From contig JBDNIV010000030.1 of NCBI GenBank assembly GCA_041688145.1, forward strand, positions 1 through 24,516: a stretch of DNA of 24,516 nucleotides, given 5' to 3'. Source of the DNA: Chlamydiia bacterium (GTDB taxonomy: Bacteria; Chlamydiota; Chlamydiia; Chlamydiales; JAAKFQ01). Below, piece by piece: positions 12,001 to 18,000 of the stretch (position 1 is the first letter of the stretch; every line of letters starts with the position of its first letter). Position numbers: made by a program.

Positions 12001-15000
12001 GCTCCTTTCAAAGAGACTCTTTTAGGAGGCGATCTATTCAGCCCTAACGCACCTATTTTACTCGATTCTGTAGAAGCTTTAAGCCCAAAAGAGTTTAAAG
12101 AGCTAGAAGCACTTGCGCTATCAGCTGAAAGTATTGTCATTTTAGGTTTCTCAAAGCTTTCAAGCAGTGCAAAAAAGCTCTTGCCTAAACTCGCCAAGTC
12201 TCATAGCGTTTTGGATGAAAAGCCGTGGGAAAAATTGGGGAGGCTAAAAGCGTGGGTTTTTCAAGAGGTAAAAAAACAGGATAAGGCTATATCTCAGGAG
12301 GCTCTGGAGGAGCTTATCCAAGTCTCTTCTAGCCTAGAGGGTCTAAAAAATGAGATTGCAAAGCTTATCCAATTTTTAGGACAAAGGGTTGAGATTACAT
12401 CTGAAGATATCGCTTTATTATGTAAAAAACAGGCTTCAGATAATGGGTGGGAGACTTTAAAGTATACGCTCGATAAAGAGTGGTCAAAGTTAGAGGCGCT
12501 TATTGATAAGCTTTGCTCTGATGAATCAGGGCTTGTTTCGCTTGTAACTCAGTTTCGCTACCAGTGTACTCAAGCAGCAGAAGTCAAAGAGTGCGCCTCT
12601 TCCTTAGAGCATTTAGCTAAAAAAAGGCCGGGACTCACTCCTTGGAGGCTGAAAAAGATCGCTCAGAGCGTAGACAATGTGTCTATGGAGTCTTTGAGAA
12701 AAGCGCTTATTGCAATTTTTGACTTTGAAGTATTTATAAGAAAGTCCAACCTAGGAGTAGCCCACTTAAGAGCTCTTTTTTTTATACTTCTACAAAAGAT
12801 TTTCTAGATGAAAGATTCATATGATACATCCCAAAAGCCTAAGCCTAAAAAAAAGCATGAGGGCAAGCTCATTGTCTTTGGGAATCTTTTAGGCCCTTTG
12901 CCTATTGAAGAGGGAAAAAGACATTTTAGTGAAGTGGTTAAAGCCGAAGTCGCTACACTTGATGGTATTTTAGCAGAAAGTGAAAGAGAAGCGCGTAGGT
13001 TTTTATCCTACTTCAGAGAAGATCTGAAGATAGAGCCGCATAAAATGCCGCTTGCTCTTTTCCATAAAAAAACGCCTAAAACAGATTTAGATTTTCTATT
13101 TGAGCCTATTCGAAAAGGGGGCACTTGGGGCTATGTCAGTGATGGAGGGCTTCCTGGGATAGCAGACCCTGGCCACTTGCTTGTACGCTATGCTAGAGAG
13201 CATCATATTCCTCACAAAGTCCATATGGGGCCTACATCTATTTTGTGGGCATTGATACTGTCAGGCTTTTCTGGTAACCGCTTTGCGTTTCATGGATATC
13301 TCGCTAAAGAACCTAAGAAAAGAGAAGAAGAAATCAAATCGCATATTAAAGAAAGCATGAGGCTTAATTCTGTTCAGATTTTTATTGAAGCGCCTTACCG
13401 AAATGAAGCTCTTTTAGAGAGCCTTATAAAAGTTCTTCCACAAGGAGCTATTTTGGCACTTGTGCACTCTTTGATGCTTCCCAATGAGACAGCTGAGGTG
13501 ATGCCTGTCTCTATGTGGAAAAGCTATTTTAGCTCAGGTAAAGCAGGGTCTTTAAGAGATAAGCCAGCTGTTTTTCTCTTTATGGTCTAAATAGATAGAA
13601 CTAATCTTAGGCTGCAGTAAAATTATTGAAATTTAGAATTTAAATAGTAAAAGAATCTTACCCTGTATTGATTTAACTAAACTGAGCCTATTTCCACCTA
13701 TCTCTTATATTTAGGGAGGGGTATTTGGGGAATTATTAGACCCGAATGTCATAGTAGCGAATCTGAGCTCCGCATGATCGATCATCTGGAGAAGTAGCAG
13801 CAACTAATGTGTTTTCATCTAACCTGAGCATCTGAGTAACTTGACCTACATGGCTACGAATTGTGTGAACACTAGCTGGTTTGCGTATGTCCCAAATCCG
13901 GATTGTTTGGTCTTCTCCACTAGTTGCAAAGGTTTGACTTTCGAGAGGCAGGGCTGACCAAACGCGTCTTTGATGCTCTGACCACTCGTGTACAAGTTTT
14001 TTTTGACTCACGTCCAAAATGCCGACCTTTCCTGTCAAAAATGCGAGAACAAAAGTATTTATTTCGTTAGCCATAGGGTGCATATCTTGGATAAAAGCGC
14101 GCTGTTTACCTTTACGTCCTTGAGGGGGAGCGGTAGGCTTTCCTTCCTTTAAGATAATGCCATTATCTTCCCAAATGTCTGACTTTTTTTTCCAAGATTG
14201 TACTACACAGCCTACAACAGCTAAAAGCTGATCGGGGGTTTGATGGTGAATTGAAAAGACCCAATCTCTTTCGTGCACACGGGTCGTTGACTCCGTTCGG
14301 TTCTCCCATAAATTGTAGAAGTCAAACTGTGTTGGAAATCCAGCAAAAAAACCAGGGGCAGTCGGATTAATAGAAGCTGTTAAGCAGTTCACTCTCTGAG
14401 CATTTGCTTCCATGCAATGAGCCCCTTTTCTAGGGGGGCGCTTAATCGGTATAGTCCGAACAAACCTTCCACAAGTAGTCCATAAAGAGATATTGCCATT
14501 TCGTGAGCCAGTAAGAAAGTAAGCTGAAGATACTGGAGTTATATCTGTGACCCAGTACTCATCTCTTTGCATACCAGGCTCTACATCAGCAACAATTGTT
14601 ACGAGTTCGCGGTTTGAGCTAGCCCACTTTTTTATTGTTGTGTCTTTAGAGCCAGTGAGAAATGTACCATCGCTTAGCATTACCATCTTTAGTATATCAT
14701 CCTGGTGTGCATCATGCGTTACATGAACAAGCTCAGGGGCATCTTTATGCGTACCTCGAGCAAAGCTTTCTCCTCGATGGCTCATTTCTTCCGGCGGCTG
14801 ACCAGCCTGAAATGGCAGGTAGAGTAAATGTTCTAGTTTGCCTTCTTGGTATCGCCCATTCCAAGAGTGTACGATCTTAAATCCCTTTTTCTGGAAAAAG
14901 AGCAGAGAATCCTTCTTGTCCTCACTTACAGTTACATGGTATCCACTAAAGGAATTGCAGCGTTTTGGAGCCTCTTCGAACAGTTTATTCATGAGCGATG

Positions 15001-18000
15001 AGCCTAGTCCACGTCCTGAATTTTGTTGTGATTGATCGACAAAAAGAGATTTAATTTCGACACTATTTTGTAACCCGTATTCAGCATATTCATTGCTTAG
15101 CTGTGTCTTAAACTGTAAAATACCGCACGGGGTATCTCCTTCATAAAGAACAAAGCAAACACGATCTTTGCTTTGGGAGATTTGTTCAAGCGCTTTATCC
15201 TGACGACCATAAAGAGGGGTCAAAATCCGTTGAAAAATATCAGTAATAATACCCATTTTTTCCTGTAGTCTAATGCCATCTGCTCTGTAGAAAATTCGGT
15301 TTGGAGCAAGAGTGTGATACGCAGAAGGATTGCGATCTGGAGAAACATTAGAAGATGCCATTAAAAGTCTCCTCAAGGGATTTGAAATTCTTGAATGTGT
15401 CAAAAAGCTTAAGAAATAGCAAGAAATATTTTATTTTATAAAAATTTCTATGTAAAAAAAAATTCATTTAGTAAGATTAGACTCAATTTATACAATGAGT
15501 TGAGATTATGGCAGGTATCGCAGAATCAAGTGGTCTAAGTAGATTTGTCTTACTTGACCCAGCAAAAAGATTGTTAGTACAGGCTTCACAAGAAAACTTT
15601 GCACGCTTTCAAAGAGTCTTTGACGCCTCAATTAAGCATATTACTGTTGATCCTGATAAAGTCCTTAAGCGCATTGAAGATCGCTGCTATGATTGTGATC
15701 TATTTATGAATGAAATCTCTGTACAGGCTGCTGCTTGCTATGATAAAAAGCCTTTTCAATATCAGGACATTTCTCAAGCTTTACGAGTCCACTTCTTGCA
15801 TGGAGGTGGGGAAAGCAAGCTCCAATTAGACCTCCTCATATTTGTTGTATCTCGAGCAATAGATAAGCTAGCCAAAGCGCTTATTTTCCCCATACCAAAT
15901 ACCGACAGAAATATGAGAAAACTGCTTGAGAGATATGGCTTTACTATCCACTCTAAAGATGAAGGCTCTACTGTTTTTAAGTGTGAAAGCATTACGGCTT
16001 TACAAAAAGCACTTAAGTTGGATTCTGTGCCTTCAGCTCAAGGATCAGAGGCTATTAGCGTGCATCGCTCTCTAGCTATAGCTGCTCCTGACGTACTTCC
16101 TATCCCTCATTTTTATCAGCCTATGACTCTGATGAAAAAGTATGTTAATTTTATCCAAAGGGGTCAAAAAACAGTGGAGGGAAGAATTAATGCAGGTTCC
16201 TTTTATGTTAAAAAATTGCATCGTGGTGATGGGTTTAGATTCTTTTACAAGCAAAATGAAAGCGATGATGTTTATGTAACAGTTACTGAAGTCAAAGAGT
16301 TTGATACCTTTGAAGAAATGCTTAAATACTATGGCTATACAGCATCTGTGCCAGATGCTAGAAGTCTTCAGCATGCGGTAAGTATCTATGCGGGCATTCG
16401 TAGTTATCCAGAAAGAGAGAGAGCATCTGGAGTAGTTGCTCTTAAGTTGCGCCTTGACCCAACACCGAGGAAACGGCCTCATCAAGGAGATTATGATCTA
16501 GGAGATGCACAGGCAAATGACTACAATGGCGATGGGCCAAGAAAACGAAATCACCGACATTTAAATAGTTGGGAGAAGAATTAGTATGGCGACAGCTCGC
16601 ATTCATATGGGGCCCTCTGCTTATCCACCGGCTTTTTATTGTACGTTCGGCCATCAGGTGATGCAAAATCCTGTTATGAACCTGAATTGTCAGCACTTAT
16701 TTGATGCAGCTGTTTTGGCAAACAATAAGAGATGTCCCGTAGATGATACAGTACTCGATTGTATACCCTTTAATGAACTGAAAGAGCTCATTAAAGCTAA
16801 CGTTTCCCTTTCCCCAAAAAAATCTAATCCTGCTTCTCAAGGACCTACTCCACTTAAGCCAAAAATTGTTCTCTCAGCAGAAAATGTGCATGGAGATGAT
16901 GTTCACGGTTTTATCCAATATAATGGGGGCTTTGTTTCAGGTTCCAAAGATGGGACTATCAAGGGTTGGGGACCAGATCTTCAGCATAGAGTCGTCTATT
17001 CAGGAAATGGAGGAGCGATAGATTATAAATACTGGGTTACTGCGTTAGCTTCTCACCCCAACGCAACACCTTTTTTTAGCGGTTCAAGGGATGGGCAAGT
17101 AGTTGCATGGAGTCCTAAGGGCAAGCCTTATACACCCGAACCTTGGGTTTTCCCAGATAGTGGGCAACACAAAGCTAAAGCAAGAAACCTTCATCGCGTG
17201 ACGTGCCTAGCAGCTCTACCAGATGAAGGTAGTAACACGCCTTTTCTTGCAGGCACTCCTCAGCGTATTCATAAGCTCGTGTTAGATGCGGAGGGGGGCA
17301 AGATAAGAATGGTAGGATCAACAAAGGTGCATGACAATGACTGGGTCTACTGCGTAGATCCTGTTGATTCTCAATTTGGAGATCAAAGATTAGTAGTTGT
17401 TGTTGGTGCAGCTCTTGAAATCTGGGACCAAAAAGACGAGAGTCTAGCTGGAAGATGGAAGTTTTTTTCGCGTCCTGTCGCAGAAGATCGAGGTGAAATT
17501 GGCCGCTCCCAACAAGGGCAAATCCAAAGGCCGCATATATCTGCTATTGCCCGGGGGGCAGCTAATATAGCTGAGATTGCTTATACATGCTTTGAAAACA
17601 ATAGGGGATTTGGCGCTGTTCGCATCGTAAATATCGAAAAGTCTGTGATCACCTTTAATGCTGAAGAACATATAGGGCGCACGTGGTGTATTGCGTATGC
17701 TACGCCTCAAATTTTTGCAACGGGGGCGGATGACCATCTTATTAAGCTCTGGGATGTGAGGGTGGGTCCAAAATCAATTCTGTCGTCACCTCCCCAGAGT
17801 GGGCGCGTTTCTTGCTTAGTCTCTCCTAGAGAAAATCATCTGGTATCAGCTTCTTGCCCAGATGATGTTAAAAGAGGGGGTGAAAAAGCGAGTTTCACAT
17901 TATGGGATATTCTAGGAGGCAGTCAACCTGCGATTAATGACAGTGATTTTCCGCCTCTGTATTGATTAATACGAGCTATTCCTGAGAATCAGAAAAAATT

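Follow-up and report, generated by a model that had tools for sequence, protein, structure and literature searches.

Proteins with an ASCH domain have only lately been reported as erasers of N4-acetylcytidine (ac4C) on tRNA. In a preprint, 19/19 ASCH proteins tested deacetylated tRNA in vitro, two GKxxExR proteins showed no activity toward the free nucleoside, and a Lys-Glu catalytic dyad was shown for members of the GKxxExR type (bioRxiv 10.64898/2026.02.27.708502). As far as the account of Iyer 2013 given in Bell 2020 goes, operons of the (PIN)-GNAT-EVE plus ASCH (plus AAA_17) type have been proposed as conflict systems (PMC7641849). Among environmental chlamydiae, the Parachlamydiaceae F-box, BTB and RING/U-box-LRR families NEX1 and PEX1 carry eukaryote-like ubiquitination domains, and type III signals were shown for the tested members (PMC4209131, in whose main text the term WD40 is absent). 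The Legionella U-box protein LubX is a metaeffector of SidH and is encoded near its target. In Prp19, U-box and WD40 are linked by a conserved tetramerising coiled coil.

Gene organization and recurrence

The window analyzed here, a chlamydial contig of 24,516 nucleotides, holds three adjacent ORFs at 13736-17965, as an earlier note had described. Their parts and surroundings are as follows.

12808-13590, plus strand: left flank, a tetrapyrrole-methylase-family gene outside the cassette, marking a variable slot
13736-15361, minus strand: g01108, 541 aa from an ATG (555 aa from a TTG start at 15403), with a Ser/Pro/Asn-rich disordered N terminus, an intact GNAT (aa 21-180) and the propeller WDa (aa 211-540)
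14822-15301, minus strand: GNAT domain of g01108, of an uncharacterised family, with motifs PLYGxQ, ExKxL, the acetyl-CoA loop NSGRGLG, and HVTVS
15362-15507, no strand: AT-rich, divergent intergenic region between g01108 and g01109
15508-16584, plus strand: g01109, a degenerate (pseudo-)GNAT, then ASCH of the PH0355/PF0455 type, then a basic C-terminal tail
15556-16002, plus strand: pseudo-GNAT of g01109, scoring 3.6 bits on the family profile, with 0/4 family motifs and the acetyl-CoA loop lost
16123-16455, plus strand: ASCH domain of g01109, with the motif GxKxxEGR
16462-16581, plus strand: C-terminal tail of g01109, with two PRKR clusters, only loosely NLS-like
16586-17965, plus strand: g01110, a U-box/RING hybrid (aa 14-70), a low-complexity linker and the WD40 propeller WDb (aa 96-445)
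16625-16795, plus strand: U-box-like domain of g01110, keeping C35, H37, C50 and D53, with a short central helix
18814-19860, minus strand: right conserved flank gene outside the cassette, 40% identical to the gene in the same place in genome G001

While g01109 and g01110 lie one base apart on the plus strand, g01108 has the opposite orientation and is transcribed away from them, so that the cassette is here a divergon. All three reading frames are whole, the divergent junction is spanned by contigs of three other runs (X2, X3 and X4), and no variant of the coding sequence is listed across four runs, whose cover has gaps. The Pfam domains named in the note were recovered in g01108 (GNAT, E 3e-7; WD40, E 2e-11) and g01109 (ASCH, E 3.1e-4, 21.9 bits against a cut-off of 21.2), and g01110 matched WD40 at E 6e-11. 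The zf-Nse match that the note gives for g01110 was also found, at E 0.011 over the full length and at E 6.9e-4 when aa 1-85 were scanned by themselves. A single sigma-70-like site lies in the intergenic region (15456-15428, minus strand) and is not above chance, the scan for promoters and terminators having given 10 and 2 sites versus 8.9 and 4.2 in shuffles.

The set recurs in other chlamydial genomes more widely than had been claimed, with GNAT-WD40, ASCH and a second WD40 gene together in 25/30 loci; the split GNAT-WD40 gene of G018 and the GNAT and ASCH pair of G026 were both seen. Among the 25 full cassettes, 20 are codirectional, 3 convergent and 2 divergent, and the clustering persists despite inversion. 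Of 400 genomes, 36 encode the WD propeller family, and 34 of these are also positive for GNAT and ASCH; GNAT counted alone is present in 58 of the 400. Domain fusions across the homologues cover all pairings (GNAT-WD40, GNAT-ASCH, ASCH-WD40, ASCH-GNAT, U-box-WD40 and LRR-GNAT-WD40). Co-occurrence, clustering and fusions lend indirect support to the idea that the three genes form a functional unit, and on these comparative grounds the cassette is a conserved gene unit. Its spread is patchy and its insertion slot variable. Recent transfer was rejected, since the G+C content of the cassette minus that of its flanks had a median of -0.001 over 32 loci. F-box genes adjoin 5 cassettes, a count for which no baseline rate was computed.

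A minimal GNAT>ASCH operon at the core

From its sequence relatives, the core of the cassette is a minimal prokaryotic GNAT>ASCH operon, a point that the earlier note had missed. This form, with proteins of 150 and 110 aa, is also found in Patescibacteria-type contigs without eukaryote-like parts, and it accounts for 22/32 metagenome loci, many of them near-duplicates. Neighbors of the HD/MazG/Nudix type occur at 17/25 WD-less chlamydial loci versus 1/36 WD loci. Together, the minimal operons and these nucleotide-sanitising neighbors of the WD-less loci point to a nucleotide substrate.

Like the (PIN)-GNAT-EVE plus ASCH operons, as far as these are described in Bell 2020 (PMC7641849), the cassette encodes a GNAT with an ASCH, with predicted acetylation of nucleic acid, and is uncharacterised. 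Unlike them, it has no EVE, PIN or AAA_17, its GNAT is fused directly to ASCH or WD40, it carries a U-box and NLS-like and secretion-like marks, and no restriction or prophage link was seen. EVE and PIN were absent from the families listed for the window proteins, the locus proteins and 62 representatives (the best 5 for the latter two). PADLOC defense profiles gave only short matches (best E 8e-4), and NCBIfam gave none over the cut-off. A viral origin was rejected, as there was no relative in IMG/VR contigs and GNAT and ASCH were absent from 50,697 phage records; BFVD returned generic GNATs at 11 to 22% identity.

One intact and one decayed GNAT

The GNAT fold and acetyl-CoA-binding loop of g01108 are supported by a Pfam match over the cut-off and by a structural model with Z up to 17.7; pLDDT was 88 for the predicted structure of the protein, in which WDa has seven blades, and 95.5 for the GNAT domain model. 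All four family motifs are present in 24/25 GNAT-WD40 proteins. The modeled fold ties with Naa60, Naa50, RimI and Ard1 (Z 16 to 17.7, rmsd 2.1 to 2.5), all of them protein-amine enzymes. The fold matches listed included no tRNA toxin, TmcA or NAT10 entry, and the 50 matches listed for the model included no tRNA-acetylating GNAT toxin of the TacT/AtaT type. Writers of ac4C of the TmcA/NAT10 type have a helicase domain and GNAT_acetyltr_2, whereas g01108 has no such domain by Pfam. The idea of one mark shared by GNAT and ASCH found no support, as the fold of the GNAT ties with protein N-terminal acetyltransferases. As neither the TmcA GNAT domain (PF13718) nor TmcAL was found in genome G000, a bacterial ac4C substrate of its own is not evident; two proteins there with partial PF05127 matches (27.9 and 25.7 bits), both without PF13718, appear to be RecD-type helicases.

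The description of g01109 as GNAT-like plus ASCH stands for the ASCH, but its GNAT part is a pseudoenzyme, which had gone unremarked. It has no Pfam GNAT match, and homology to the GNAT family is seen at the family level only. In the families compared, one GNAT per cassette is kept intact while the ASCH-fused copy decays.

In the ASCH motif, K221, E224 and R226 are invariant in 28/28 sequences, and the Lys-Glu dyad of the GKxxExR-type ac4C deacetylases is present in g01109. This invariance, with the dyad shown in other GKxxExR proteins, indirectly supports the earlier suggestion that the ASCH can remove N4-acetyl groups. The domain shares the ASCH fold, the dyad Lys and Glu, and the Arg with the GKxxExR-type deacetylases TthASCH, EOLA1 and TRIP4 and with YqfB, but differs from all four in belonging to the PH0355/PF0455/PF0469 subfamily and in its fusion partners, a pseudo-GNAT and linkers of basic composition. 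Its nearest structures are those three Pyrococcus proteins (E 4e-34), uncharacterised according to their PDB titles. YqfB-type membership was rejected: Glu replaces the YqfB threonine (Thr24) at the fourth motif position, and YqfB was not among the PDB matches at E<=1.

An optional U-box and twin propellers

The U-box-like domain of g01110 aligns with its homologues over 12 invariant columns, and C35, H37, C50 and D53 probably form one zinc site. The PF04564 profile matches 8/9 aligned homologue N termini at E<=0.5 (best 4.2e-7) and has no match in the g01110 copy, bearing out the remark that the U-box here is below the cut-off. Used alone as a query, this copy found only one RING (E 1.1). Against the structural database, the U-box profile gave LubX as the best match (E 2e-8), with Prp19 at E 0.04. 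The position of LubX I39 is Phe in g01110 and L, F or I in 7/18 homologues, and the helix has 10 to 11 residues between F and C. By profile and alignment, the cassette U-box is closer to LubX than to Prp19, with an atypical E2 surface. Like LubX, it is of bacterial origin and has further candidate effectors encoded next to it; unlike LubX, it is single and optional, is fused to WD40, probably binds zinc at one site, has a short helix, and occurs in a type III host.

The "Prp19-like" E3 ligase of the earlier note holds no further than the domain order (U-box, linker, WD40). Membership was rejected on the weak U-box match and on the linkers, which at 48 to 100 aa are variable, unalignable and Pro/Ser/Ala-rich, with no conserved coiled coil evident by eye; the g01110 propeller also belongs to a separate family. 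Nor does ubiquitination by the U-box look like a core part of the unit, as the domain is present in 8/25 cassettes and absent from 17/25.

The paralogous propellers WDa and WDb retain one set of Arg/Trp/Tyr/Asp residues. A DWD box, DXXX(R/K)XWDX(R/K), lies at aa 484-493 of g01108 and aa 383-392 of g01110, and is found in 32/33 and 26/28 propellers versus 2/12 unrelated WD40 proteins. The likeness to the DCAF/DWD receptors of CUL4-DDB1 (PMC1805432) extends to the box DXXX(R/K)XWDXR in both propellers and a second WDxR-like motif, whose arginine is lost in g01110; unlike those receptors, the cassette propellers are of bacterial origin and no more than candidate DDB1 binders. The DWD motif is also found in WD40 proteins other than receptors.

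Signs of host direction

N termini were ranked with our own crude composition measure (Ser/Thr/Pro-rich), which is not a trained predictor; 60% of 25, 70% of 33 and 61% of 31 homologues exceeded the 90th percentile of the controls, compared with 9% of 89 controls and 0/22 minimal-operon proteins. Among 884 ORFs of G000, g01108 ranked in the top 0.5% and g01110 in the top 4.3%, while g01109 was not raised (62% scored as high). The type III secretion gene hrcV is present in the genome, over the cut-off.

A strict NLS, by the patterns generally used, was found in 17/33 GNAT-ASCH proteins versus 8/231 neighbor proteins. Here, as in the ranking of N termini, the homologues are kin, so that P values overstate. 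Shuffled linkers gave a mean of 1.6 and a maximum of 8 in 2000 runs. The pattern was also present in 15/34 further representatives and in 0/6 compact Patescibacteria-type fusions, and it was not above shuffles in GNAT-WD40 (3/25) or WDb (2/31). The classical pattern K(K/R)x(K/R) occurred in 28/33 GNAT-ASCH linkers or tails (shuffles, 5.4). The window copy, g01109, has no canonical NLS, and its tail fails both patterns. Basic motifs of this kind could instead bind nucleic acid. Another idea, that the KRxR motif docks on a propeller of the same cassette, is tenable because most motif-bearing genomes also have a propeller. Some loci (L061, L102 and L178) carry the motif without an adjoining WD40 gene.

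The host direction proposed earlier gains indirect support from N-terminal composition, NLS-like linkers, the U-box, the DWD box and the secretion system. Together, these features suggest that the trio is an undescribed set of host-injected proteins aimed at the nucleus. Like NEX1 and PEX1, it brings eukaryote-like ubiquitination domains to environmental chlamydiae; those are expanded repeat families (PMC4209131), while the cassette is a single-copy multigene unit with enzymes.

Competing explanations

The reading that we favor, at a little short of an even chance, is that a prokaryotic operon for nucleotide modification, made up of GNAT and ASCH, was refitted as type III effectors and now serves environmental chlamydiae as an accessory effector module. 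The proteins are probably type III substrates, and the ASCH protein somewhat probably has an NLS and enters the nucleus or nucleolus of the host. Whether it there removes or reads ac4C on host RNA or DNA we put at about even. GNAT-WD40 would acetylate an amine of whatever its propeller binds, in the likeliest case a nucleotide, a nucleic acid or an RNA-bound protein. The pseudo-GNAT would be a docking module that may carry NLS-less partners along, and WDb would direct to that same ligand either the ASCH or, by way of the DWD box or a U-box where there is one, host ubiquitin ligation. The least supported step, a writer and an eraser that share one mark, is rather unlikely. The boldest form seems quite unlikely: a secreted writer/eraser set for ac4C on host nuclear RNA or DNA, descended from a GNAT>ASCH operon of the Patescibacteria type, in which twin propellers would aim a helicase-free GNAT and an NLS-bearing ASCH and would recruit ubiquitin ligation as well, through the U-box or by CUL4-DDB1 mimicry.

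The fold ties with N-terminal acetyltransferases, the LubX-like U-box, the invariant residues common to both propellers and the adjoining F-box genes would also suit an effector with metaeffectors acting on protein. GNAT-WD40 would then be a secreted acetyltransferase (of protein N termini or lysine, or of the aminoacyl-tRNA amine), U-box-WD40 would dispose either of that target or of the cognate effector, in the manner of LubX with SidH, and the ASCH would be an RNA/DNA-binding anchor and not the eraser of the GNAT's mark. We consider this unlikely: the pairing of GNAT and ASCH exists already in minimal operons without eukaryote-like parts, WD-less loci have nucleotide-sanitising neighbors, the catalytic residues of the ASCH are invariant, and the U-box is optional. 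Distinctly unlikely is a system that works in the bacterial cytoplasm, for toxin-antitoxin action, nucleotide sanitation or defense against phages. In it, the GNAT would acetylate a nucleotide or tRNA, the ASCH would reverse this, and the propellers would be internal sensors or scaffolds. It would fit the conflict systems proposed for GNAT-EVE and ASCH operons in the account of PMC7641849. The minimal operon with its HD/MazG/Nudix neighbors, the patchy spread and variable slot, and the WD40 proteins of free-living bacteria also agree with it. Against it stand the NLS-like and secretion-like marks of the chlamydial forms, absent from the minimal ones, and the lack of a PADLOC match of weight or of EVE/PIN among the families listed for scanned members. 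Moreover, we know of no partner for a U-box or DWD box in the bacterial cytoplasm.

It is very unlikely that the family is host directed while the window copy is partly decayed or re-specialised, with only GNAT-WD40 still working as elsewhere. Its pseudo-GNAT (2.77) and WDb (1.19) branches are among the longest, and the low GNAT score and missing canonical NLS of g01109, the lost arginine of g01110 and the rearranged gene orientation point the same way, but the reading frames are whole, the ASCH motif, the invariant residues of the propellers, the DWD boxes and the ligands of the U-box are all preserved, and the four runs list no coding variant where they cover it.

Should injection of the chlamydial form prove true, the module would be a candidate means by which bacteria control a host RNA modification. 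It would also show clearly how housekeeping or conflict genes can be turned into effectors through the acquisition of secretion signals, NLS motifs, WD40 and a U-box; a secreted ac4C writer/eraser, if true, would be the first case of a bacterium directly editing the host ac4C mark. On the weaker readings, too, the GNAT family is new, as is a chlamydial WD40 family whose binding face is strongly conserved. The tie of ASCH to a single GNAT family, itself uncharacterised, extends across many chlamydial families and Patescibacteria-type genomes and outlines a small enzyme pair. A wider search of the ESM Atlas returned unnamed clusters with generic WD40/ASCH rows.

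A conserved cassette in a variable slot

The cassette comprises three open reading frames (ORFs) in the window:

13736-15361, minus strand: g01108 (GNAT-WD40, propeller WDa), ORF with Pfam GNAT (E 3e-7) and WD40 matches
15508-16584, plus strand: g01109 (GNAT-ASCH), ORF with a Pfam ASCH match (E 3.1e-4)
16586-17965, plus strand: g01110 (U-box-like plus WD40, propeller WDb), ORF with Pfam WD40 and weak zf-Nse matches

These values reproduce those of the earlier note. The three adjacent genes that it described are all present, but g01108 is divergent from g01109 and g01110, and the gap at this junction is AT rich. 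Contigs from sequencing runs X2, X3, and X4 spanned this junction with at most one letter different, in a check covering all four runs (lake or freshwater metagenomes) that shared half or more of the words; one of the four may itself be where the window's sequence came from. The predicted structure of g01108 (33 sequences; pLDDT, 88) has a disordered N terminus, a GNAT domain, and a propeller of seven blades, counted from the strand list of the model, that resembles WDR5-like propellers (Foldseek; rmsd of about 3).

A scan of GTDB contigs yielded 29 loci (21 labeled chlamydiae, 6 uncultured bacterium, and 2 other groups). With the window included, 25 of 30 loci carried the GNAT-WD40, ASCH, and WDb genes together, the remaining five being short contigs, fragments, or lone genes; at locus L168, the cassette halves lay 9.6 kb apart. 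Orientation varied among the 25 cassettes (20 co-directional, 3 convergent, and 2 divergent), and WDb always shared its strand with an ASCH gene (25/25). Across 400 genomes of the phylum, one of them unscored, the GNAT, propeller, and ASCH profiles matched 58, 36, and 76 genomes, respectively, and all three were positive in 34 of the 36 propeller-bearing genomes, as read across three result tables. None of the three matched any of the 29 genomes of chlamydial family f36. The recurrence of the set in other chlamydiae, previously claimed, is borne out by these counts. The cassette is, at the sequence level, real and conserved, and its three genes almost certainly form a functional unit.

Neighbors differed from locus to locus, without kinship among the flanking genes (56 of 62 flanking ORFs scanned; of the other six, four were scanned separately or lay in loci covered separately and two fell outside the scan). 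In G001, a genome of the same family, the same flanking genes enclose two other genes, and the cassette site is therefore a variable slot. G+C content gave no sign of a recent arrival. A 256-amino-acid membrane protein without a family match (window 18031-18801, minus strand) is likewise absent from this G001 slot.

At L131:5370-7514 and L033:7215-9782, the gene immediately after GNAT-ASCH or ASCH encodes a WD40 protein from another, generic family; judging from such arrangements, the propeller pairing may have arisen more than once. Lone WDb-type genes, adjoined by neither GNAT nor ASCH, occur at L166:7582-8763 and L174:6799-7902, and LRR-GNAT-WD40 fusions occur at L059:7230-9530 (where three ASCH genes and an upstream F-box gene are also found) and in proteins P0045 and P0063.

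One intact GNAT, one degenerate GNAT, and an ASCH domain

The N terminus of g01109 belongs at profile level to the same GNAT family as g01108 but scores only 3.6 bits and retains none of the four family motifs. All four were retained in 24 of 25 GNAT-WD40 proteins. Among 33 GNAT-ASCH proteins (after removal of 10 duplicate loci), those with an intact GNAT elsewhere in the locus (n = 26) had a median of 56 bits and kept the acetyl-CoA loop in 1 case, versus 172 bits and 5 cases for those without one (n = 7). A FastTree phylogeny (100 sequences, 162 columns), whose root is arbitrary and from which the direction of transfer is not readable, agreed with this decay: pseudo-GNATs were long branched, while the GNAT-WD40 clade (support of 0.965), which includes one intact GNAT-ASCH, was short branched. 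The GNAT domain of g01109 is thus a predicted pseudo-enzyme, and each cassette retains one putatively active GNAT. The persistence of the spare fold suggests that it may be kept as a docking module.

The GNAT model (pLDDT, 95.5) tied with Naa60, Naa50, Naa30, Ard1, and RimI-type enzymes (Z, 16 to 17.7; rmsd, 2.1 to 2.5; 138 to 151 residues aligned at 11 to 17% identity). The modeled fold would point to an amine acceptor without saying which amine, and the proposed symmetry of a writer and an eraser therefore derives from the gene pairing alone; we consider it unlikely that GNAT and ASCH form a true pair of this kind.

The ASCH domain belongs to the PH0355/PF0455/PF0469 type (E 4e-34), and its residues K221, E224, and R226 are invariant. 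According to a preprint (10.64898/2026.02.27.708502), all 19 ASCH proteins assayed deacetylated bacterial tRNA in vitro, Glu-type ASCH works by a Lys-Glu dyad, two proteins failed to act on the free nucleoside, and some of the proteins may have kept the activity as an evolutionary remnant. Six Pyrococcus proteins are among those of that study and may include members of this subfamily. Eukaryotic N4-acetylcytidine (ac4C) sits on tRNA and 18S rRNA (same preprint). Neither a TmcA GNAT domain nor TmcAL was found in the window's genome (92% complete), so that the bacterium's own ac4C is not evident. Action of the ASCH domain on ac4C in the nucleus is quite conceivable, if tentative.

Secretion-like N termini and NLS-like motifs

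Substrates of type III secretion contain much Ser, Thr, and Pro but little Leu and few acidic or basic residues (PMC2669295). We devised a score over 20 N-terminal residues (S+T+P+N minus L+E+D+K, Asn being our addition). The control 90th percentile was exceeded by 60% of 25 GNAT-WD40, 70% of 33 GNAT-ASCH, and 61% of 31 WDb proteins, by 9% of 89 housekeeping-like and 13% of 413 other neighbors, by 19 to 24% of stand-alone GNAT and ASCH proteins, and by none of 22 minimal-operon proteins. When the 884 ORFs of the genome were ranked, g01108 fell within the top 0.5% and g01110 within the top 4.3%; g01109 was average. The type III gene hrcV was found in this genome. That the cassette is host directed, as earlier proposed, seems likely.

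Strict classical NLS patterns occurred in 17 of 33 GNAT-ASCH proteins versus 8 of 231 length-matched neighbors, and in shuffled linkers and tails with a mean of 1.6 (maximum, 8). The importin alpha major-site motif K(K/R)x(K/R) (PMC3946659) occurred in the linker or tail of 28 of the 33 proteins, compared with 5.4 (maximum, 16) after shuffling. The places of these motifs, in linker or tail, do not align among proteins. The strict set also matched 15 of 34 further representatives and 0 of 6 compact Patescibacteria-type fusions, and no excess appeared in GNAT-WD40 or WDb. Speaking against a host target, the window's g01109 has neither the strict patterns nor K(K/R)x(K/R); its tail carries two PRKR clusters, unique among the 884 ORFs, a pattern picked after inspection. 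Many ordinary bacterial proteins are flagged by NLS predictors (PMC13311002).

U-box and propellers

Nine U-box N termini aligned with 12 invariant columns. Their profile matched LubX (E 2e-8), plant U-boxes, Nse2 (7e-5), RNF125, and TRAF5, with Prp19 at just 0.04; the Prp19-like identity given in the earlier note does not hold beyond the order of domains, and the cassette is not a Prp19. The U-box Ser/Thr and Asp/Glu positions were retained in 16 of 18 sequences. The domain also has a C-H-C-D set, for which 9 of the 18 had been selected; this set presumably resembles one RING zinc site. The position of LubX I39, required for activity (PMC2996335), is L/F/I in 7 of 18 sequences and Phe in g01110. 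Ubiquitin ligase activity is plausible for these predicted domains. Present in 8 of 25 full cassettes, the U-box does belong to some of them, as claimed, but it is an optional add-on rather than a part of every one. In the WDb tree, forms with and without it were interleaved in one subclade, with weak inner support. At L106:5466-5765, the U-box is a separate 99-amino-acid gene between GNAT-ASCH and WDb, which may result from a split or a frameshift.

WDa and WDb fall into two distinct clades (support of 100) and have common invariant Arg, Trp, Tyr, Asp, His, and Asn residues (28/28 at most positions in WDb). In the g01108 model, these lie where the inner strand of each blade begins, on the face with which WD40 proteins bind ligands. 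Such a basic and aromatic pocket fits nucleic acid, nucleotide, or phosphopeptide. The best propeller sequence matches outside the family (E 1e-10) covered 15% of the query. Both propellers carry the DWD box of DDB1-binding WD40 proteins (PMC1805432) in 32 of 33 and 26 of 28 cases, versus 2 of 12 unrelated WD40 proteins; the boxes lie at homologous positions and are therefore only a lead for DDB1 binding. F-box genes flank five cassettes and ankyrin genes two, counts without a baseline; environmental chlamydiae are rich in F-box genes (PMC4209131).

Three other ORFs of the window have features of their own:

7561-10311, plus strand: 916 amino acids, without a substantial match in Pfam or NCBIfam, an orphan and effector-like candidate
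6953-7432, plus strand: second, ordinary GNAT, PRK09831-like below cutoff, unrelated to the cassette GNAT family
22944-23708, minus strand: 254 amino acids in two near-identical halves, no convincing family

Minimal operons and known systems

The GNAT family has 341 representatives (E ≤ 0.001). Its minimal form, a 150-amino-acid GNAT followed by one or two 110-amino-acid ASCH genes, made up 22 of 32 metagenome loci, many of them near-duplicates; 3 of 95 homologues were labeled Pacebacteria, Parcubacteria, or Patescibacteria, and most had no taxon label. HD, MazG, and Nudix are nucleotide-sanitizing families. A gene of one of them lay within 1.5 kb at 17 of 25 propeller-less chlamydial loci versus 1 of 36 propeller-bearing loci, although 8 of the 17 had seeded the profiles (Pfam confirmed) and six were close kin. 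Given this neighborhood, the GNAT-ASCH core probably had nucleotides or nucleic acid as its ancestral substrate.

Of the systems described so far, the (PIN)-GNAT-EVE plus ASCH operon of Iyer 2013, as reported in PMC7641849, comes closest. The cassette lacks EVE and PIN and hence is not a member, but in its minimal form it may, by analogy, work in the same way. In one reading, it would work like a Legionella effector-metaeffector cluster. Within listings and abstract starts, apart from the papers cited here, and with most subscription papers outside this scope, we found neither a chlamydial GNAT-ASCH-WD40 cassette nor a bacterial effector that acts on host ac4C. The cassette is apparently undescribed so far.

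Minimal GNAT>ASCH(>ASCH) operons, an uncharacterized system in their own right, occur on Patescibacteria-type and possibly archaeal contigs (L149:5989-6758, L153:2631-3833, and L162:5932-7125), near Nudix, HD, MazG, or thymidylate-kinase genes. On Simkania negevensis plasmid pSn (NC_015710.1, L180:2758-4928), a MazG-like gene precedes a family GNAT fused to a Mutator-transposase-like domain and annotated only as transposase, followed by a convergent ASCH whose N terminus resembles, by eye, a lipoprotein signal; the layout is identical in L094-L099. Simkania negevensis is thus a cultured organism carrying a GNAT-family member. At L030:5223-6347, an RNase T-type exonuclease forms a fusion with an ASCH of the cassette's subfamily, and a basic KRK motif lies close to the N terminus. 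Protein P0132 combines acetyl-CoA synthetase and the family GNAT, and at L128:3278-5224 an acetyl-CoA synthetase gene adjoins an ASCH-GNAT-WDb cluster.
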